Positions 8,126 to 30,867 of a stretch of 31,239 nt of DNA are shown piece after piece; the stretch's first letter is position 1; each line of letters starts with the position of its first letter. Source of the stretch: a virus (lineage: Duplodnaviria > Caudoviricetes); the IMG/VR virus record IMGVR_UViG_3300037789_000005, positions 1 to 31,239 of that record, one strand, 5' to 3'. The notes beneath the pieces were generated by a model that worked only from the letters and a program-made list of their open reading frames with translations, had not been told where the DNA came from and did no database searches. The position numbers were made by a program, and so were the translations under genes.

Positions 8126-8417
8126 TGTCTACTCTTTTCTTTAAGCCCATAGCTGTGATGCTACGACCTGTGTGCTTTGTTAACCAAGCTGCTACATTCT
8201 TATAGCTGTATTGTTTCAGGTGTCTCTTGGCTAGTTCTAGCGCCTCAAGTTCAGACGGGATAGGTAAAAGCTGTCTAGGGTTATCTGGGTTTATCTCATA
8301 GCCAAAAGGTACAGAACTACTTACTTTAGCGATAACGTGCCACTCACGTTCCTTACCTTTCTTTGGCTTTGGTAGTTCCCAGAAGCCTAAGTCCCTATCG
8401 TAATCAAAGCGTGGCAC
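7989..8417 (-). CDS. DNA-binding protein resembling the recombinase domain of large serine recombinases
   Basis: VPFGYE...LLP.P.E.EAL......SY..VA.WL pattern, then a basic coiled coil; GTG start just after the terS stop. Confidence 0.6.
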   Translation of the reverse strand: MPRFDYDRDLGFWELPKPKKGKEREWHVIAKVSSSVPFGYEINPDNPRQLLPIPSELEALELAKRHLKQYSYKNVAAWLTKHTGRSITAMGLKKRVDIERRRKKASVIKRRLAKRLEEALQEIEKLERQSIGSYSAVEPDQE

Positions 8418-8805: not shown

Positions 8806-9255
8806 CTATAGGGGGTTAGCTACGAGTGAGTCGTATGCTTTCCAGATGTCATCAATCTCAGTAGAGAATGTGTCTAGCTTGTCACCAATACCATCTGTAA
8901 TAGTTGTACTGCGTTCTACCTGACTACGTAAGTCTAGTAGTGTGCGTTGCTGTTCAAGAATTGTCTGCATGTTAGTGCTGATCTGCGACAACCTAGTGTT
9001 TAGACCACGAACATCATTATCCTGAACAGCTTGCTCTAATGCTTGGATGCGAGATGCCAGAGCTATAGATGTCTCATCAAAGGTCTCTGATGCCTGTAGT
9101 ACTTGTTCAATGCCTGCCTCAACAGCATAGAACCGCTGAAGTGTATCATATCCGAAGTATATTGCACCACTAATACCAGAAAGGATGGGCAGGGCGGCAG
9201 CAATGTACCACCCCTTAAACGTAAACCCACCAATCTTTAGCTCTGTATCTTCCAT
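8806..9255 (-). CDS. Membrane-anchored coiled-coil protein
   Basis: N-terminal TM segment (WYIAAALPILSGISGAIYFG) followed by heptad repeats. Confidence 0.7.
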   Translation of the reverse strand: MEDTELKIGGFTFKGWYIAAALPILSGISGAIYFGYDTLQRFYAVEAGIEQVLQASETFDETSIALASRIQALEQAVQDNDVRGLNTRLSQISTNMQTILEQQRTLLDLRSQVERSTTITDGIGDKLDTFSTEIDDIWKAYDSLVANPL

Positions 9256-10070
9256 TACATACTCGCTGAAGAAGCACCATTCTGAAGGATGTACTGGCTT
9301 GCACCATAGATATCGTTAGCATCACGCATATCATTGGTGAGGTAACCAGACCAACCAGTAGCATTACCTGCATTATCCCACACAATCACAAACTCGTCTA
9401 CGCTTTGAGTGTAGGTGAGGGCAGTGTACGTACCAACAACAATACCGTTATTAGCAGTGTAGGTATCAATACTTGCAGTAAGGCTAGAGTTATTAGCTGC
9501 AGCCATAAATGCACCAGCTTGCTGAGCATAAGTCTCAACTGCATCAAGTGCACTGTTGTATGAATCAACCTCACTTGCATCAATGCTATATGCATCTGTA
9601 GCAAGCATCTCTTGTAGTGCTACACGCTCAGGTGCTGTGTCCGCTGCCGCTGCTGTATCTGCAACAGAAGTAGCCGTCATAAGTACAGAGGTAGCATCAG
9701 CAAGAGTATCAACAGCTAGTGACAAGTTGTTCATAGCTGCAGCATGTTCCTGCATAAAGAGCTGGTTAGCATTCTGTGCAGTCTGATAGTCATGTGCCTG
9801 TACAGCAGCTACTGCATCCTCATATGCAAGAAGCATAGCCTCAGTAACCTTAGCACCATCTAGTGACCCATCTACAATAACGCCACCTACCTCAGCATAA
9901 CCTACAGCACCAATGCCATAGTTGATAGAAAGCTGAAGCCTATTATCAATAACATCAATAGTGTTGATAAGGTTCTGAATCTTTTCGTCACCTGTCTCTG
10001 CGTGTAGTACGGAACCGTTCGCTAAGACTACGAGTGTCGCTGGTAGCAACAACTTGTTCTTCACGCTCAT
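9255..10070 (-). CDS. Exported Ala/Asp-rich helical protein
   Basis: Signal peptide-like MSVKNKLLLPATLVVLANGSVLHA; GGAGGA RBS; 271 aa. Confidence 0.75.
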   Translation of the reverse strand: MSVKNKLLLPATLVVLANGSVLHAETGDEKIQNLINTIDVIDNRLQLSINYGIGAVGYAEVGGVIVDGSLDGAKVTEAMLLAYEDAVAAVQAHDYQTAQNANQLFMQEHAAAMNNLSLAVDTLADATSVLMTATSVADTAAAADTAPERVALQEMLATDAYSIDASEVDSYNSALDAVETYAQQAGAFMAAANNSSLTASIDTYTANNGIVVGTYTALTYTQSVDEFVIVWDNAGNATGWSGYLTNDMRDANDIYGASQYILQNGASSASM

Positions 10071-10698
10071 TAGTTAAATCCTCCCCGATCCTTAATAAGC
10101 TATTCCAGAAGTATGGATCACTGTCATAACCAACAATGAACTCCTCTGGATATTGTCTGTAGAGTTCTATGGCTCTCTGTCCCATAACGAGATTGCCAGT
10201 TACTACATCCATAATAGGACAAGGTGTAGAAGCTAACATCATAGCTTTAAAGACTTGAGGAGAGGCACACATAACACTAATGGCACTTACCTGTAGACCT
10301 AATCCACCCAAGGCCTGAGGGGTACCTAAGAGTCTAGCGTTCTTGCGGATGTTACAGGCCTCATCCTGTTCCATACCACCACTAGAAATACCTACTACGC
10401 TTAACTGTACGCCAGCAGACTTAGGGATAAGACAGGAGTCGTTACCTCCACCACCCATCATAGTAGGTGATACCGCTGACATAACTGGAGCAGGAGAACC
10501 TGCACCTGTAGCATTGTAGTTGTTTGTTGTAGACGGGTTGTTACTATCTACAGTCGAATCTTGTATGTTGGTGTTAAAGTCACCATTAACATCATTACTT
10601 CTTGCAGGTGTCACCCAAAGTAACAGCAACGTCAGGGTCCATACACATAAGCTGCTCAGCAGCGTCTGGCCTTCCAATAGCCGCAAGTGTCTCAGCAT
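9988..10698 (-). CDS. Exported cysteine-containing protein (start uncertain)
   Basis: Hydrophobic signal-like segment ending WVTPARS, N/T-rich linker, then DSCL...EACN...VMC...TPCP. Confidence 0.7.
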   Translation of the reverse strand: MLRHLRLLEGQTLLSSLCVWTLTLLLLWVTPARSNDVNGDFNTNIQDSTVDSNNPSTTNNYNATGAGSPAPVMSAVSPTMMGGGGNDSCLIPKSAGVQLSVVGISSGGMEQDEACNIRKNARLLGTPQALGGLGLQVSAISVMCASPQVFKAMMLASTPCPIMDVVTGNLVMGQRAIELYRQYPEEFIVGYDSDPYFWNSLLRIGEDLTNEREEQVVATSDTRSLSERFRTTRRDR

Positions 10699-10807
10699 TA
10701 AGATTACGTTCACAGACTGTATCTCCCTCCCGACACGACGAACGCATAACAACTTGTGTAGTACTACATGCGCCCAGCGCTAACAGAAGTAAGATAGACT
10801 TATACAT
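10595..10807 (-). CDS. Small lipoprotein
   Basis: MYKSILLLLALGA-C lipobox; four further Cys; 70 aa; overlaps the next gene. Confidence 0.65.
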   Translation of the reverse strand: MYKSILLLLALGACSTTQVVMRSSCREGDTVCERNLNAETLAAIGRPDAAEQLMCMDPDVAVTLGDTCKK

Positions 10808-11305: not shown

Positions 11306-11565
11306 TACCACTTCACCTTATCAGCCCAGTATGCTGCAGACATCTTACCCTTCTTGATGTTCTCAGCATGTCTAGCCTTAAAAGACTTCTGACGTGCAGT
11401 AGGCTTCTTATCACCTGTCACACCCTGCTGACCAAAACGGATAGTCTTAATCTGGTCACCCTCTTTAGCCACAACTACATGCGACTTCGTAGGATGCTTA
11501 GGTGTACGCTTAGGCTTGTTGTAGCCATCTACACCTGCACGTTCTAGTCTAGGGTCTTTAGCCAT
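11305..11565 (-). CDS. Conserved basic phage protein
   Basis: MAKDPRL...IRFGQQG...SFKARH...SAAYWADKVKW; ATG 11565 preferred over the longer ORF call. Confidence 0.75.
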   Translation of the reverse strand: MAKDPRLERAGVDGYNKPKRTPKHPTKSHVVVAKEGDQIKTIRFGQQGVTGDKKPTARQKSFKARHAENIKKGKMSAAYWADKVKW

Positions 11566-11896
11566 CCTTCTTATCCTTAGATTTAGTGTAGGCTTGTCCA
11601 CCATAGAAGGCAGCAACAATAGCAGCTACAGATACAAAGTACACAGATGCCATGCTACCTAAGACAGTCGCTGCTTCACTTAAGCCTAAGGCTACAGCAA
11701 TAACTACAGCAAATGGATACAAGAGCATTCCAGCTAAGGCAAACCATGCCATGTTGCGCTGGGCATCTTCCTTCTTGTCTTCATTCTCAAAGCGTACCTT
11801 ACGCTCATACAAAGCAATCTCATCTTCAGTGATGACACCATCACCGTCAGTATCAGCCTCTGCCCACTTAGACTCCTCACTGATACTCTTAAACAT
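11558..11896 (-). CDS. EF-hand plus two-TM membrane protein (holin-like)
   Basis: DTDGDGVITEDE canonical EF-hand loop, two TM helices, charged C-tail; ATG 11896 follows GGAG. Confidence 0.65.
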   Translation of the reverse strand: MFKSISEESKWAEADTDGDGVITEDEIALYERKVRFENEDKKEDAQRNMAWFALAGMLLYPFAVVIAVALGLSEAATVLGSMASVYFVSVAAIVAAFYGGQAYTKSKDKKDG

Positions 11897-11898
11897 GC

Positions 11899-12288
11899 TT
11901 AGTCGTAGCTCCGCATAGAGGGCTTCTCTTCCCAAGCCTGACAGGTACGTAGGTTATGACAGATAAAGTCAAACTTATGGCAGTAACCTCTGCCACCACC
12001 ATCCATGTCAAACTCAGTCATGGGGATGGCTTCCATCTTTTCCATCATCTTAGTGGAATCATCAAAGTATTCACAGTTAGCACAAAGCTGTCTACGTGCC
12101 TGTGCTGTGTCTACCATCCAAAGTCTAGCCATCTTGTCCCAATATTCTGCATTAGCAGTAGGGTCTTCAGATGCCTTCTCTGGACCGAGGTTCCACTCAT
12201 CAGCTACCATCTGCATGTTAGCCTCATTCTCAGAAGCACTAACAATAGTCAGGTCCATAGGTGGCATCATGTACGTGTCAATCTGCAT
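11899..12288 (-). CDS. Cys-rich protein with HiPIP-like motif
   Basis: CANCEYF...GYCHKF...CQAW. Confidence 0.6.
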   Translation of the reverse strand: MQIDTYMMPPMDLTIVSASENEANMQMVADEWNLGPEKASEDPTANAEYWDKMARLWMVDTAQARRQLCANCEYFDDSTKMMEKMEAIPMTEFDMDGGGRGYCHKFDFICHNLRTCQAWEEKPSMRSYD

Positions 12289-22400: not shown

Positions 22401-23627
22401 ATGATGGAATTAGCACTACTTAAAAGCCTCATGAACCGTGAGTTTTATGAGAGCCACAAGGGTATCCGTTGCCCTGACAAAATCTTTAGCAAAGATATCC
22501 GTAAGGTAAAGCAGACACTCGACACAGCCATGAACAACTATGACACCGACCTTAGTGTGTCAGACTTGGAGGCTTTGTTTGTCGCTACCAACCAGACTAT
22601 GACAACAGCAAACAAGGAAGTGTTCTCTGATCTGTTTCGCCGTATGGAGAAAGAGAAGCCACTCAACAATGACATTGCTACAGAAGTATTGTCTAAGATG
22701 TTCCAGCAACACGTTGGTGAACTGGTAGCTAACGTAGGCTTTGACTATGTGAATGGTAATGCATCTAGCCTTGAGCCTCTGCGTAAGATCATCGAAGACT
22801 ACAAGGATGACTTCACCCCTAACGTCGATGTTAAGTGGGAAGACATGAGCATTGAATATCTTCTTGAGGCTAACGAGATGCAGTCGCAGTGGAAGTTCAA
22901 CATCCCAAGCCTACGCCGCCGTGTTGAGGGTGTTAGTGGTGGACACTTGATGCTTGTTGGTGCACGTCCCAACACAGGTAAGACATCCTTCCATGCATCG
23001 CTTATTGCAGGGCCTGGTGGCTGGGCTGAACAAGGTGCCAAGTGTGTTATCCTCTGTAACGAGGAAGCCTATGAGCGTGTCGGTGCACGTTACCTTGCTG
23101 CTGCTACCAACATGAGCATCCCTGAAATTCGTGGTAACATGGCACTAGCTAAGAGTCGCTACTCTAAGGTAGAGAATAACATCAAAGTCAAAGATGCTAG
23201 CAACAAAGACATGGCATGGGTTGAGGCAGTAGTGAAAGCATCTAACCCTGACATTGTTGTGCTAGACATGGGCGATAAGTTTGCCGCTAAGACCAGTGAC
23301 AAGTCCGATGTCTACCTTAAAGAGGCAGCTATCCATGCACGTCACATTGCTAAAGAATACAATTGCACTGTGATCTGGATGTCTCAGCTATCTGCTGTAG
23401 CAGAGGGTAAGGTATACGTTGATCAGTCTATGATGGAAGGGTCGAAGACAGGCAAGGCAGCAGAGGCAGACCTCATGGTACTGATCTCTAAGAATCCACA
23501 GGTCGAGGGATCTGATGAGCAAGACACACAACGCCACTTGAATATTGCTAAGAATAAGCTACAAGGTGGGTGGCATGGTGTAGTTCATTGTGAACTGGAC
23601 GGAGAACGGAGTATCTATTCAGCATGA
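22401..23627 (+). CDS. DnaB-like (SF4) replicative helicase
   Basis: Walker A GARPNTGKT, NEE, VVLDMGD, MSQL, AEADL, KNK. Confidence 0.9.
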   Translation: MMELALLKSLMNREFYESHKGIRCPDKIFSKDIRKVKQTLDTAMNNYDTDLSVSDLEALFVATNQTMTTANKEVFSDLFRRMEKEKPLNNDIATEVLSKMFQQHVGELVANVGFDYVNGNASSLEPLRKIIEDYKDDFTPNVDVKWEDMSIEYLLEANEMQSQWKFNIPSLRRRVEGVSGGHLMLVGARPNTGKTSFHASLIAGPGGWAEQGAKCVILCNEEAYERVGARYLAAATNMSIPEIRGNMALAKSRYSKVENNIKVKDASNKDMAWVEAVVKASNPDIVVLDMGDKFAAKTSDKSDVYLKEAAIHARHIAKEYNCTVIWMSQLSAVAEGKVYVDQSMMEGSKTGKAAEADLMVLISKNPQVEGSDEQDTQRHLNIAKNKLQGGWHGVVHCELDGERSIYSA

Positions 23628-25669
23628 AACTTGTACTAGATGTAGAAAACACTGTCACTAAACGTGATGGCAAAGACTTTCTTGATCCATTCGAGAAGGG
23701 CAACTACTTGGTGCAGGTGGGTATGGTCAATGCAGATGATAAGGCCCAGCGCTTTATCGTTAACATCGATCACAACGAGGCAAAGGATACAGGTGCAGGA
23801 CGTAAGCTAGTACAAGATGTGTTAGACATGACGACACTTCTTATTGGTCACAACTTACAGCACGATCTTATGTGGCTGTGGGAGTGTGGCTTCAAGTATG
23901 ATGGTGATATCTATGACACGATGTTAGCTGAGTACTTGTTGCAACGTGGTCAGAAACAGCCGCTTAGTCTTGGTGCTTGTGCTGAACGCCGCAACCTATC
24001 TCACCAGAAGGATGACACGCTAAAGCGCTACTTCAAAGAAGGATACAATACCAATGAGATACCTCTCAAAGAACTCACTTACTATCTTGACTGCGACCTT
24101 GACACTACTTGCGAGTTGTACCACGCACTCGAATCCGATTTCGCCAGTGATGAGTCCAATTCACTCTTACCCGTCCGTACCGTTACCTTCGCCACCTGCA
24201 AGGCCCTCACCAGAATTTACACAAAGGGAATCAGGGTGGATCGTTCCGCCCTCAACGATGTCCGATTTCAATTCGAATCAGAATTAGCCGACATCGAAGA
24301 TAGGTTGCAGCGTCAGGTACGTGAACTTATGGGTGACACCCCTATTAACCTTAACTCCCCAGAGCAGATGTCTCAGGTGGTGTTCTCTCGGAAGGTCAAC
24401 AACAAGAAAGAATGGGCAGACCTATTCAATTACGTGAAGACCGACAAAGAGTTTAAGGATACCATCAATGCCAACAGCACTATAGTTAAGAAGACACAGG
24501 CATTCACATGCCCTACCTGTGGCGGTGAAGGTAAGGTGTTCAAGGTTAAGATGGATGGCACTAAGTACAAGAAGCCAAACAAATGTAAGGACTGTGATGC
24601 ACGTGGTTACCAACTTAAAGAACTACCTCAGGTCGCTGGCCTTTGCTTTACTCCTCCGTCTAAGACTTGGGTTTCTGCTAACGGGTTTGGGACAGGCAAA
24701 GACAATCTTGATGCACTTATTGCGACTGCTCATAACAATTCTATGGATAGCGCAGTTGCTTTTCTTACTGATCTTAAGCGTCTATCTGCTGTCAGCAGTT
24801 ATCTATCAGCATTTGTAGAAGGCATCAGTGTCTATACACGTGAAGATGATATGCTGCATGTAGGTCTTACACAGCACATCACTGCTACTGGTCGCTTCTC
24901 TGGTCGTAATCCTAACATGCAGAACATGCCACGTGGTGGTACCTTCCCTGTTAAGAAGGTCTTTGTGTCACGCTGGGAAGGTGGACAGATCATGGAGGCT
25001 GACTTTGCTCAACTAGAGTTCCGTGTTGCTGCATTCCTAAGCCAAGACCCTGTTGCTATGCAGGAGATTGCTACTGGGTTCGACGTACACAGTTACACTG
25101 CAAAGGTTATCTCTGATGCAGGTCAGCCTACGTCACGACAGGCAGCTAAGGAACATACGTTTGCTCCACTGTTCGGTGCTACCGGGTATGGCAGATCTAA
25201 GGCGGAGGAGGCTTACTACATCCACTTCAATGAGAAGTATGAAGGCATTGCATCATGGCACAAGAAGCTAGCTGATGAGGCTCTGCGTTTCCAGAAGATC
25301 ACTAACGTCTCTGGTCGTCAGTATGCTTTCCCTGATGTAACTCGACGTGCCAATGGTACACCAACACACTTCACCATGATCAAGAACTACCCTGTTCAAG
25401 GCTTTGCTACTGGTGATGTTGTGCCTGTTGTTCTAGTTGAGATGGAGAAACGTCTCGACCCACTGCAGTCTTGCCTAGTTAATACTGTACATGACTCGAC
25501 TGTTGTTGACGTGCATCCTGATGAGGTTGATCAGGTTATTCAGATTGTTCAAGACATGAACACAGAACTGAATGATCTGGTTGAGAAAGCATACGGTGTC
25601 ACAATGAATGTACCTCTCTTACTTGAAGCTAAGATTGGTCCAAACTGGCTTGACACAAAGGACGTATGA
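23624..25669 (+). CDS. polA: Family A DNA polymerase with 3'-5' exonuclease and DnaJ-type Zn-finger insert
   Basis: LDVE, GHN...D, YDT, Y...D exonuclease motifs; TGRFSG.NPNMQN; motif A DFAQLE.R; motif B R..AK..TF; motif C VHD. Confidence 0.95.
   Translation: MKLVLDVENTVTKRDGKDFLDPFEKGNYLVQVGMVNADDKAQRFIVNIDHNEAKDTGAGRKLVQDVLDMTTLLIGHNLQHDLMWLWECGFKYDGDIYDTMLAEYLLQRGQKQPLSLGACAERRNLSHQKDDTLKRYFKEGYNTNEIPLKELTYYLDCDLDTTCELYHALESDFASDESNSLLPVRTVTFATCKALTRIYTKGIRVDRSALNDVRFQFESELADIEDRLQRQVRELMGDTPINLNSPEQMSQVVFSRKVNNKKEWADLFNYVKTDKEFKDTINANSTIVKKTQAFTCPTCGGEGKVFKVKMDGTKYKKPNKCKDCDARGYQLKELPQVAGLCFTPPSKTWVSANGFGTGKDNLDALIATAHNNSMDSAVAFLTDLKRLSAVSSYLSAFVEGISVYTREDDMLHVGLTQHITATGRFSGRNPNMQNMPRGGTFPVKKVFVSRWEGGQIMEADFAQLEFRVAAFLSQDPVAMQEIATGFDVHSYTAKVISDAGQPTSRQAAKEHTFAPLFGATGYGRSKAEEAYYIHFNEKYEGIASWHKKLADEALRFQKITNVSGRQYAFPDVTRRANGTPTHFTMIKNYPVQGFATGDVVPVVLVEMEKRLDPLQSCLVNTVHDSTVVDVHPDEVDQVIQIVQDMNTELNDLVEKAYGVTMNVPLLLEAKIGPNWLDTKDV
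24054..24287 (+). CDS. Putative overprinted proline-rich lipoprotein (+1 frame within polA)
   Basis: MRYLSKNSLTILTATLTLLAS-C lipobox; AAGGA 10 nt upstream; Pro/Ser-rich mature part; atypical polA codons over the same span. Confidence 0.5.
   Translation: MRYLSKNSLTILTATLTLLASCTTHSNPISPVMSPIHSYPSVPLPSPPARPSPEFTQRESGWIVPPSTMSDFNSNQN
24711..24818 (+). CDS. Possible overprinted membrane peptide (+1 frame within polA)
   Basis: MHLLRLLITILWIAQLLFLLILSVYLLSAVIYQHL; local excess of T-ending polA codons; weak RBS. Confidence 0.3.
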   Translation: MHLLRLLITILWIAQLLFLLILSVYLLSAVIYQHL

Positions 25670-28489: not shown

Positions 28490-28858
28490 ATGCTGAAACG
28501 AGATGACATTGAAGATATGGGCTATGGGTATTACGACAATACCTATACCAAGTTTGACTACAGTAAGTGGGTCGAAGATAAGATCATTACTGAGGGTACC
28601 GAACGCCTGATGGAGAACACGCTTGGCCTTATGGGTGAAGCTGGTGAGGTAGCCGAGAAGATCAAGAAGATGATCCGTGATGGTAACCGCTTTACTCCAG
28701 AGGACATCGTTAAAGAGCTAGGCGATGTAGTGTTCTACGCTACTGCACTCGCTAACTACTATGGCTCTAGCCTATCTGGTATGTTGGCAATGAACATTGA
28801 TAAACTTGATAGCCGTGAAAAGCGTGGCGTAATTAAAGGAGAGGGTGATAACCGATGA
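28490..28858 (+). CDS. mazG: MazG-like nucleotide pyrophosphohydrolase
   Basis: LGL.GEAGEVAEK.KK..RD, KELGDV.FY, N..KL.SR..RG...G.GDNR. Confidence 0.9.
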   Translation: MLKRDDIEDMGYGYYDNTYTKFDYSKWVEDKIITEGTERLMENTLGLMGEAGEVAEKIKKMIRDGNRFTPEDIVKELGDVVFYATALANYYGSSLSGMLAMNIDKLDSREKRGVIKGEGDNR

Positions 28859-30867
28859 ACAACCGTCAACAGTTTTCCACTCGTGCAAACGTAGTTACAC
28901 GCCGTACGTACAACCGCCCAAAGGATGATGGTACGTTTGAGACGTGGGATGAAACAGTGGCACGAGTTATCTCACACCAAGAGTGGCTGTGGGAACGGGC
29001 TAAGGGTAAGCCCCTAGACGCTACTGAACTAGCAGAACTCGAAGAGCTACGTGAGCTTATGCTTGACCGCAAGGCTACCGTATCTGGTCGTACTCTCTGG
29101 CTCGGTGGTACAGATGTATCGAAGAACCGTGAGGCTTCTCAGTTTAACTGTTCGTTTGGTCGTATCGAAACTGTCCATGATGTAGTTGATGCTTTCTGGC
29201 TGCTGCTACAGGGCTGTGGTGTAGGCTTCGAACCTGTTGTCGGCACACTGAACGGATTTGCTAAACCAGTAGAGCTTGAGGTTGTACGCTCCAAGAAGAC
29301 TACCAATGATGGTAAGGGCTTTGAGCGTAACCGTACCTCTACCTACAACCGTGAAGATGGTAAGAAAGTATGGCACCTCACTGTAGGTGACAGTGCTGAG
29401 GCATGGGCTAAGGCTATCGGTAAACTGATGGCACTCAAGGAAGCTGTTGATGTTGTTATCATTGACTTCTCTGAGGTACGTGCTGCTGGTATCCGACTGA
29501 AAGGTTACGGTTGGATTAGCTCTGGTGACGAGACTATCTCTGTAGCTTTTGCTAAGATTGTAGCACTGATGAACAACCGTGCAGGTAAGCTACTCACACG
29601 TATCGACATCCTTGACCTGCTGAACCACCTCGGTACCACACTGTCATCTCGTCGTTCCGCTGAGATTGCCCTAATGCCCGTAACAGATGCGGAGATTGAC
29701 GACTTTATCTCCGCAAAGAAAGACTACTGGTTGTACGACAATGCTCACCGTCAGCAGTCCAACAACTCTATCGTGTTCTGGAACAAGCCGACCAACTGGG
29801 AACTGCGTTACATCTTCGACAAAATGGTTGAAGCTGGTGGCTCTGAGCCTGGGTTCATCAACGGTGAAGCAGCTAAGAAACGTGCACCTTGGTTCAAGGG
29901 TGTTAACCCCTGTGCTGAGATCCTGCTCGGTAACAAGTCGTTCTGTAACCTAGTAGAAGTTGACTGGGGTAAGTTCCTCACGGACTTTGGTGATCTACAA
30001 CGTGCAGTCTATATTGCGGCTCGTGCTAACTATCGTCAGACCTGTGTTGATCTTGATGATGGTGTTTTGCAGCGTAGTTGGCATGAGCTTAACGAGTTCC
30101 TCCGCCTGTGTGGTGTAGGCGCTACGGGTATCGTTAAATTTATTGATGCACACAAGGGCTACAATAACTTGGAGGACATGGTTCGTATTCTCCGTAAGGA
30201 AGCACAGAAGGGTGCTCACTCTATGGCTGACCAACTAGGTCTACCACGTGCTAAGGCTGTCACTACAGTTAAGCCATCTGGTACCCTGTCTAAGATCATG
30301 GACACTACAGAGGGTGTACACAAGCCACTCGGTAAGTACATCTTCAACAACGTTACCTTCTCTAAGCACGACGAGATCATCCCAACACTTCGTCAAGCTG
30401 GTTACAAGGTATTCGACAAACCGTTTGAGTCTGACTCAGTACTTGTCACTTTCCCTGTAGCTTACGAAGATGTGAAGTTTGACGTAGTTGATGGTAAAGA
30501 AGTCAACATGGAGTCTGCTGTAGATCAGCTTGAACGCTATAAGTTCATGATGGACAACTACGTAGACCACAACTGCTCAGTTACGATCAGCTATGACGTT
30601 AACGAAGTCGAAGAGATTGTTGAGTGGATTCTTAACAACTGGGATGCTTACGTAGGTGTATCTTTCATCTTCCGTGATGACCCTTCGTTGTCCTCTGAAG
30701 AGGCTTGTCAAAAGCTAGGCTATGCCTACCTACCACAGGAAGTAGTAACTAAGGAGAAATACTATTCGTATGCCTCTACGTTGCTGCCTGTAGACCTGAC
30801 TAACCTGGGTTCTACTGATGACCTATCTGATGAAGCCTGTGCCACTGGTGCTTGCCCTATCCGTTAA
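28855..30867 (+). CDS. nrdJ: Class II (B12-dependent) ribonucleotide reductase
   Basis: RTY.R, GR.LW..G, NC, G.GVGF, NPCAEI, TVKPSGT.S, C-terminal CATGACPIR; no NrdB adjacent. Confidence 0.9.
   Translation: MNNRQQFSTRANVVTRRTYNRPKDDGTFETWDETVARVISHQEWLWERAKGKPLDATELAELEELRELMLDRKATVSGRTLWLGGTDVSKNREASQFNCSFGRIETVHDVVDAFWLLLQGCGVGFEPVVGTLNGFAKPVELEVVRSKKTTNDGKGFERNRTSTYNREDGKKVWHLTVGDSAEAWAKAIGKLMALKEAVDVVIIDFSEVRAAGIRLKGYGWISSGDETISVAFAKIVALMNNRAGKLLTRIDILDLLNHLGTTLSSRRSAEIALMPVTDAEIDDFISAKKDYWLYDNAHRQQSNNSIVFWNKPTNWELRYIFDKMVEAGGSEPGFINGEAAKKRAPWFKGVNPCAEILLGNKSFCNLVEVDWGKFLTDFGDLQRAVYIAARANYRQTCVDLDDGVLQRSWHELNEFLRLCGVGATGIVKFIDAHKGYNNLEDMVRILRKEAQKGAHSMADQLGLPRAKAVTTVKPSGTLSKIMDTTEGVHKPLGKYIFNNVTFSKHDEIIPTLRQAGYKVFDKPFESDSVLVTFPVAYEDVKFDVVDGKEVNMESAVDQLERYKFMMDNYVDHNCSVTISYDVNEVEEIVEWILNNWDAYVGVSFIFRDDPSLSSEEACQKLGYAYLPQEVVTKEKYYSYASTLLPVDLTNLGSTDDLSDEACATGACPIR

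Follow-up and report, generated by a model that had tools for sequence, protein, structure and literature searches.

A probable lipoprotein gene nested in the DNA polymerase gene of HMO-2011-type roseophages and its possible link to a distant holin-like gene

The virus record IMGVR_UViG_3300037789_000005, analysed here over its 31,239 bases (the window), includes capsid, portal, terminase, integrase, primase, helicase, polymerase and reductase genes. The polymerase gene, polA (23624..25669, + strand), codes for a family A DNA polymerase of the HMO-2011 type with a DnaJ-like zinc domain (phrog_17). Inside it, in the +1 frame of polA codons 144-221, lies an open reading frame (ORF) of 77 amino acids that starts with ATG (24054..24287, + strand) and would encode a lipoprotein. 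An earlier note made from the sequence alone had proposed such a gene, and its description holds: the lipoprotein signal, the acceptor Cys22 and the proline-rich chain are present, and a Shine-Dalgarno-like AAGGA (24039..24043, + strand), formed by polA codons Glu139-Gly140, lies 10 nt upstream of the start. The window polymerase shares 74% identity with its counterparts in Roseobacter phages CRP-603 and CRP-2, 72% with that of CRP-207 and 57-59% with those of HMO-2011, CRP-1 and CRP-345 (57% for HMO-2011). These phages are all either members of HMO-2011-type subgroup I or cultured relatives of it (PMC9038755). No feature is annotated inside polA in the GenBank records of CRP-603, CRP-2 and CRP-207. 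A contig from run X1, which may be the source of the record, has no differences from the window, and a search of the GTDB collection for a prophage copy has found no relative.

The predicted signal peptide II (residues 1-21; 24054..24116, + strand) is apparent from the sequence, from a rule-based scan and from a helix in the AlphaFold2 model. It consists of a basic N-region and an uncharged core and ends with the lipobox L19-A20-S21-C22 (24108..24119, + strand), where Cys22 is the predicted lipid anchor and the next residue is Thr, not Asp. Proline makes up 21% of the mature part. The AlphaFold2 model (pLDDT 66) contains a single helix at residues 2-24, the rest being coil. A conserved C-terminal block (residues 45-63; 24186..24242, + strand) includes Pro45, Pro48, Pro51, Glu54, Ser60 and Trp62, as well as Cys55 and Cys57 in relatives, the latter two being Phe and Gln in the window. 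The window copy is atypical: it is devoid of the C-x-C present in nearly all relatives and is 6-11 residues longer. No sigma-70-like promoter was located on the + strand between 22300 and 24500; the two sites found there are both on the - strand, at chance level.

For comparative analysis we used the best 80 of 591 relatives and three cultured phages, which together with the window gave 84 sequences, reduced to 34 representatives at 90% nucleotide identity; 35 representatives around HMO-2011 served as a control clade. The nested product is 61-77 aa long across copies, and Met1, Leu19, Cys22, Pro45 and Ser60 are invariant in 25 aligned proteins. The strict lipobox consensus [LVI][ASTVI][GAS]C, as given in PMC6139136, is present in 21 of the 34 representatives and its near variants in 11; the two having neither are both ORF-less. 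The residue after the lipobox cysteine is Ser or Thr in 33/34. Proline content of the mature chain varies from 6 to 21% in intact copies, and most relatives have two cysteines there (none in the window copy). No membrane helix follows the cysteine in any nested copy scanned, so the C-terminal transmembrane segment expected of a u-spanin is missing. The lipoprotein scan used a home-made rule which atypical lipoboxes may escape.

In 78 of the 84 window-clade sequences the same place is occupied by a frame open for 55 codons or more, which is missing from the other six. It starts with ATG in 70 cases, GTG in two and ACG in six. The ACG copies (L027, L041, L065, L225, L243 and L486) have an intact nested ORF with the lipobox kept, and non-canonical initiation is possible for them. 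Within codons 144-205 of the 34 representatives, 12 stops were observed in the +1 frame versus 153.5 expected, 30 representatives having none, while the same region of the control clade has 130 versus 164.4 expected. The observed/expected ratio is 0.08 in the ORF and 0.31 in the best non-overlapping window of polA. Synonymous variation amounts to 0.667 of the random expectation inside the ORF versus 0.854 and 0.843 outside it; the ORF is the lowest 62-codon window of polA in this respect, and the sites outside are near saturation. Thus, the conserved +1 frame and the suppressed synonymous variation, which the earlier note proposed to look for in aligned HMO-2011-type polA genes, were both found in the window clade. 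The ORF, which holds just 58 of the 573 scored columns, contains 24 of the 30 columns with the strongest codon bias; the corresponding number in the control clade is two. When codons were redrawn with the polA amino acids fixed (20,000 draws), the window's frame stayed open in 0.26% of draws and retained the start and lipobox in 0.005%.

The shift of polA codon usage over the nested region, also described previously, is confirmed: nine uncommon codons take 20 of 28 eligible positions at polA codons 166-220 versus 22 of 250 outside the ORF (Fisher p 5e-13). The favoured codons spell elements of the nested gene, namely Met1, Leu19, Cys22, the prolines, Glu54 and Trp62. In the AAGGA region, Gly140 is encoded by GGA in 19/34 (background 0.14) and Glu139 by GAA in 28/32 (0.39), with GGA used in 7/35 of the ORF-less clade. 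AAT at Asn144, which provides the start Met1, is found in 27/31. Conservation of the lipobox is seen in two codons: Thr162 is ACT (Leu19) in 33/34 (background 0.28) and Leu165 is TTG or CTG (Cys22) in 33/34 (0.26), the sole exception being an ORF-less lineage. C-ending codons giving proline are preferred at Thr188 (ACC in 30/34, background 0.16), Thr191 (ACC, 24/26), Thr194 (ACC, 23/28) and Ala209 (23/26), backgrounds for the four positions being 0.11-0.16, and Arg197 is AGA or CGA in 29/33. Since the sequences are related, binomial p-values exaggerate the significance of such bias. Cys55 and Cys57 provide no independent evidence because they are forced by polA Met198 and Met200. Lineages that lost the frame have gained many stops in it with polA intact. 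Taken together, these comparative tests strongly support a genuine nested envelope lipoprotein, and we regard the frame as very probably a real gene.

Carriers of the nested ORF form one clade of HMO-2011-type roseophages, which includes the cultured CRP-2, CRP-207 and CRP-603, where the ORF is unannotated. Among representatives, 54 of 60 from the window clade and none of 26 from the outgroup have it intact; the HMO-2011/CRP-1 clade lacks it. A polA tree was built without codons 135-222, leaving out the ORF's own columns. On the window side of this tree, the ORF-less G088-G090 are the first to branch off (with a long-branch warning), and the presence or absence of the ORF takes six changes, five of them forced by well-supported branches. 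This fits one gain and several losses (G012, G013, G014/L289, L033, G006 and G068, the last two of which may be one event). A profile search of viral contigs has found the ORF inside polA in all of the best 80 of 321 matches. Protein searches have found no stand-alone homologue, the three and eight matches obtained being nested copies, products of frameshift or chimerism and one repetitive false match. A spread narrower than that of the host frame, combined with the lack of a stand-alone homologue, is the pattern expected of de novo overprinting. The earlier note knew of no description of the arrangement, and no account of a lipoprotein nested in polA was found in the literature searched, which left out supplements and most subscription papers, and the words "spanin" and "overlap" do not occur in PMC9038755.

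Two distant relatives (36-40% identity) on separate contigs, L333:2001-2540 and L335:2001-2540, have polA split in two frames at the region of the nested ORF: one frame ends with a stop and the polymerase goes on in +1. This implies that the region is a tolerant linker.

When 1,942 called ORFs from 35 genomes or fragments were clustered into families, the best family-level correlate of the nested ORF turned out to be the gp47 family, a membrane protein of 140-148 aa encoded about 15 kb away (CRP-603 gp47, L167:12697-13140; another locus is L349:17120-17560). To identify gp47 as the best genomic correlate of the polA-nested lipoprotein is new here. The family is present in 17 of 20 ORF-bearing, one of 10 ORF-less window-side and none of five outgroup genomes. 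The three ORF-bearing genomes without it, including the window, end before the gp47 slot, while the loss lineages G006, G012, G013 and G014 do have the slot in front of gp46, with nothing in it. Of another 38 records, 22 extend as far as the slot, and gp47 was found in 10/10 ORF-bearing, 0/5 ORF-less window-side and 0/7 outgroup records. A search started from gp47 gave 50 records; 36 of them cover the polA segment, and 34 of these have the intact ORF and two, from one lineage (G068 and G069), do not. Pooling of the 79 records for which both traits are known gives 56 with both, 21 with neither, two with gp47 only and none with the ORF only. ORF-bearing records not picked via gp47 have it in 23/23 cases. 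gp47 is missing too in four out of five loss lineages, one of which has a u-spanin instead.

gp47 is widespread and highly conserved: it gave 1,256 protein matches, pelagiphages, cobaviruses and a Verrucomicrobia phage among them, and homologues were found in 27 phage records. In Skadi phages it is labelled "peptidase M15", without visible support for the label. It has no match in Pfam at E up to 0.1, so the PF11351 (GTA_holin_3TM) profile does not recognise it, and it matches PHROG 38283 (unknown function) with E 1e-10. By language-model features (Atlas), gp47 has 0.94 similarity to a cluster in which 14% of members carry GTA_holin_3TM. Its structural model contains helices 6-56, 60-79 and 130-145, strands 82-98 and 115-128 and a short helix at the hairpin tip, so that gp47 is predicted to have two membrane helices flanking a long periplasmic beta-hairpin. 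A fold search with this model gave one unnamed match (E 2e-4) and a non-significant Rz-like one (E 0.35). The gp47 alignment has no conserved cysteine, and no open +1 or +2 frame was found within gp47 genes of 23 + 5 homologues. The gene just upstream of gp47 often encodes a peptidoglycan domain (Hydrolase_2, LysM, PG-binding); this slot holds such domains in ORF-less genomes too.

Lysis genes of other kinds were also located in the group. CRP-1 gp54 and CRP-345 gp68 combine a lipobox with a C-terminal membrane helix and are encoded beside the endolysin, which is the layout of u-spanins, compared here with cobavirus spanins (PMC6775973). The CRP-1 u-spanin (L171:36836-37177) is unannotated and has a homologue in G012 (L347:626-994). 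CRP-345 gp68 and the G012 copy match NCBIfam spanin2_3 with E 3e-14 and 1e-12, below the curated cut-off. Among 40 records, only the ORF-less G012 has a u-spanin homologue, beside the endolysin; a search of 29 further records, run without a positive control, gave no matches. gp47 and a u-spanin were never found in the same genome. In CRP-603, the nested ORF codes for the only credible lipoprotein found by a six-frame scan. No stand-alone endolysin was found in ORF-bearing genomes among 72 selected proteins or by BLAST with three endolysins (the search was not exhaustive), except in G018, where a lysozyme-like protein is encoded directly upstream of gp47. G006-G008 have a GH108 endolysin and an HMO-2011 gp58-type membrane protein, HMO-2011, G003 and G004 a lysozyme, and no credible spanin was recognised in any of these six.

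The following sequence of events can be proposed. The gene would have arisen de novo, overprinted on a variable region behind the polA exonuclease domain in one clade of HMO-2011-type roseophages, and would be translated from the replication-module mRNA via an internal ribosome-binding site. Bacterial lipoproteins are exported by Sec and processed by Lgt and Lsp. Likewise, the nested protein would undergo Sec export, lipidation at Cys22 and cleavage by signal peptidase II, most likely followed by sorting to the outer membrane. In enterobacteria, sorting is directed by the residue after the cysteine, and it is the Ser or Thr in this position in 33/34 that points to the outer membrane, though the rule may not hold in roseobacters. 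This would leave a flexible proline-rich periplasmic chain of 40-55 residues with a conserved tip, which, judging from the co-occurrence, could meet the periplasmic hairpin of the late holin-like inner-membrane gp47. The nested protein may thus act similarly to an o-spanin, with a non-spanin partner about 15 kb off.

We favour such an o-spanin-like helper because the u-spanin appears only where both the ORF and gp47 are missing; the size of the nested protein, its proline content and the two cysteines of most relatives may also fit o-spanins (PMC6139136). A function tied to lysis through the distant holin-like gene appears most likely, while the link itself is suggestive, not proven. We put the probability that the nested lipoprotein is an outer-membrane partner or helper of gp47 in lysis at about 0.4. 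The lipoprotein seems to need gp47, but gp47 does not seem to need the lipoprotein. The earlier note offered a displaced spanin or superinfection exclusion as possible functions: its lysis side gained support from co-loss with gp47 and exclusion with the u-spanin, the canonical displaced o-spanin did not, and superinfection exclusion received no direct support.

A number of observations weigh against a partnership with gp47. The window contig stops before the gp47 slot, so that a gp47 partner is presumed for this genome. Of 58 gp47-positive rows, 35 come from records chosen for gp47, and only four independent pairs lie on supported branches (3.7 agree, none oppose, sign test p 0.125). The lineage G068/G069 keeps gp47 with the nested ORF lost. 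CRP-4, CRP-5, CRP-7 (from base 8,200), HTVC031P and Skadi-4 have a gp47 homologue and no credible lipoprotein in six frames, meaning that gp47 does not need a nested partner; the nested-ORF profile gave no hit in 13 genomes including such gp47-only phages (best E 0.16). G006, HMO-2011, G003 and G004 have no ORF, gp47 or recognisable spanin, so the loss is not always compensated. The gp47 model has low confidence (pLDDT 55). The C-x-C of the nested protein is dictated by polA and absent from the window copy, and its ORF has no family match in PHROGs, Pfam (25 members searched) or NCBIfam. Finally, the co-loss could result from a shared cause such as a host switch.

The same co-occurrence data would also suit an antiholin-type timer: an early lipoprotein made from the replication operon would bind the periplasmic hairpin of gp47 and delay lysis. 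The seat in a pre-late gene is suitable for an inhibitor, and a timer would explain the asymmetry, as gp47 alone occurs and the ORF alone never does (0/56). The GTA_holin_3TM holin of ICP1 is under antiholin control (PMC7182436), and a dispensable D29 lipoprotein encoded off the lysis cassette modulates lysis (bioRxiv 10.64898/2026.08.27.747656). However, the ICP1 antiholin ArrA is a transmembrane protein encoded near the holin, no lipoprotein (PMC7182436). Besides, the residue after the cysteine suggests outer-membrane sorting, as far as the enterobacterial rule applies to roseobacters, and mutual exclusion with the u-spanin points to an outer-membrane job. We consider the timer unlikely.

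Superinfection exclusion, where an outer-membrane lipoprotein would block the receptor from inside as T5 Llp or Cor do, is about equally unlikely. Llp and Cor are encoded by stand-alone genes tied to the receptor-binding protein. The nested ORF is linked to a holin-like gene instead: its top genomic correlate is the late gp47 and no tail or receptor-binding gene, and no sequence similarity to Llp or Cor was found. What the nested protein would share with them is its small size, a predicted outer-membrane location and presumed production before the late genes; Llp, a small lipoprotein of the outer membrane, is produced soon after infection (PMC9586334, bioRxiv 10.64898/2026.03.26.714494), and the phages in question carry an integrase (PMC9038755). 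On the other hand, the protein is conserved across phages of three host strains (CRP-603, CRP-2 and CRP-207), CRP-1 infects the same strain as CRP-2 without having it, and the absence of a + strand sigma-70-like promoter described above does not favour expression in a lysogen. Other roles, taken together, account for a somewhat smaller share of our expectation.

In layout and composition the predicted lipoprotein resembles lambda Rz1 and other embedded o-spanins. These are also small proline-rich lipoproteins encoded in the +1 frame of another gene, with a flexible linker after the lipidated cysteine and usually two periplasmic cysteines, and are also missed by gene callers (PMC6139136). By Atlas features the nested protein is placed at 0.90 to an Rz1 cluster (rank 18, 133/256 features), which is a weak lead only. 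Unlike Rz1, it is hosted by a DNA polymerase gene and not by an i-spanin gene, has no linked type II i-spanin and no Rz1-family sequence match, and its likely partner, with two helices and a hairpin, is encoded about 15 kb off versus a published maximum of about 1 kb (PMC6139136). The protein therefore fails as a member of the two-component spanins, with neither a cognate type II i-spanin nor a match to a known family. A canonical o-spanin displaced from a type II i-spanin located elsewhere is very improbable as well. Many ORF-bearing genomes do encode coiled-coil proteins with a membrane helix at the N-terminus, and spanin genes separated by more than about 1 kb would be undetectable by the method of Kongari et al. 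(PMC6139136). But these candidate i-spanins belong to several unrelated families, none of which tracks the ORF. The family of window 8806-9255 is found in 7/20 ORF-bearing genomes, accompanied by a lipoprotein of its own (10595-10807), and the CRP-603 gp76 family is also present in the u-spanin-bearing CRP-345; both were rejected as the i-spanin partner.

The least probable explanation is that there is no gene and the open frame is a by-product of polA amino acids, shared ancestry or an RNA/DNA signal: the forced Cys55/Cys57, the relatedness of the sequences, the ACG starts of 6/78 open frames and another stop-poor +1 window (codons 480-541, 12 versus 38) would agree with it, but the reduced synonymous variation, the clustering of biased columns in the ORF, the elements spelled by the favoured codons and the stops gained upon frame loss would not.

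Three other known systems are worth comparing. The family that gp47 resembles, GTA_holin_3TM, includes the ICP1 holin TeaA, which has a dedicated partner, ArrA, affecting lysis (PMC7182436). However, ArrA is transmembrane and encoded next to the holin, whereas the partner proposed here is a nested lipoprotein, and gp47 itself has no PF11351 match and carries a predicted long periplasmic insert. The roseophage u-spanins (CRP-1 gp54 and CRP-345 gp68; PMC6775973) share the lipoprotein signal and the phage group with the nested protein, but have a C-terminal membrane helix, adjoin the endolysin and occur only in genomes without the ORF and gp47. Gene 64 of mycobacteriophage D29 codes for an accessory lipoprotein, located apart from the lysis genes and able to modulate lysis (bioRxiv 10.64898/2026.08.27.747656); it has a mycobacterial host and, according to the abstract, is not nested in a polymerase gene.

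The HMO-2011 type is one of the dominant groups of marine viruses, and the nested ORF is carried by three cultured phages. A lipoprotein nested in polA escapes both gene callers and spanin searches that expect an adjacent i-spanin. Kongari et al. were unable to identify a spanin in 91 of 677 phages, about 13% of phages with Gram-negative hosts, stated that about 1 kb was the widest identifiable separation of spanin genes and allowed that other membrane topologies might serve (PMC6139136). The nested protein is a candidate route to outer-membrane lysis or lysis timing in phages without an identifiable spanin. It would also be a clear example of a gene that originated de novo within one of the core replication enzymes; its origin can be dated, it was lost repeatedly and it has an apparent partner. 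As polA is a marker gene of the HMO-2011-type group, dual coding affects its codon and selection analyses.

Another +1 ORF was observed in polA of the HMO-2011 subclade (L086 and 28 relatives, 29 representatives including the cultured HMO-2011). It covers polA codons 487-553, corresponding to about 25083-25286 in the window, and its product has 67 residues with a hydrophobic start, a basic middle and no lipobox. ATG is made from GAT in 29/29 (background 0.44), Thr492 is ACC in 29/29 (0.15), Thr503 ACG in 29/29 (0.11) and Ser547 TCC in 24/24 (0.06); a stop at 554 is present in 26/29. Neither the window clade nor CRP-1 or CRP-345 conserves this ORF. As the HMO-2011 subclade is less diverged, the evidence is weaker than for the nested lipoprotein. 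We tentatively suggest, as a joint reading of lower probability than the gp47 partnership itself, a new outer-membrane disruption module of abundant, spanin-less marine phages in which the gp47 type replaces the spanin, one clade having recruited the polA-nested lipoprotein and the HMO-2011 subclade having independently overprinted another polA gene.

Other envelope-related genes were noticed on the - strand of the window. A four-gene cassette (8806-10807) upstream of the terminase small subunit gene is present in 7/20 ORF-bearing genomes. It encodes a 70-aa lipoprotein with four further cysteines (10595-10807), two proteins with signal-like N-termini (9988-10752 and 9255-10070) and a membrane-anchored coiled coil (8806-9255), annotated as "putative lysozyme" in CRP-207, yet with no such domain match. 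The gene at 11558-11935 (- strand) codes for a 125-aa protein with an EF-hand-like N-terminus, membrane helices and a weak match to holin family PF07332 (E 4e-4); homologues are found in CRP-207, CRP-1 and CRP-345. In the ORF-less G006, a gene near the lysis genes (L341:12070-12432) encodes a protein with a signal peptide, alternating barrel-like C-terminal strands and no Pfam match. The ribonucleotide reductase of the window (28855-30867) and those of G012 and G013 are only 26-27% identical to that of CRP-603, versus 64-100% for the remaining genomes in the comparison, pointing to a swap of the reductase type.

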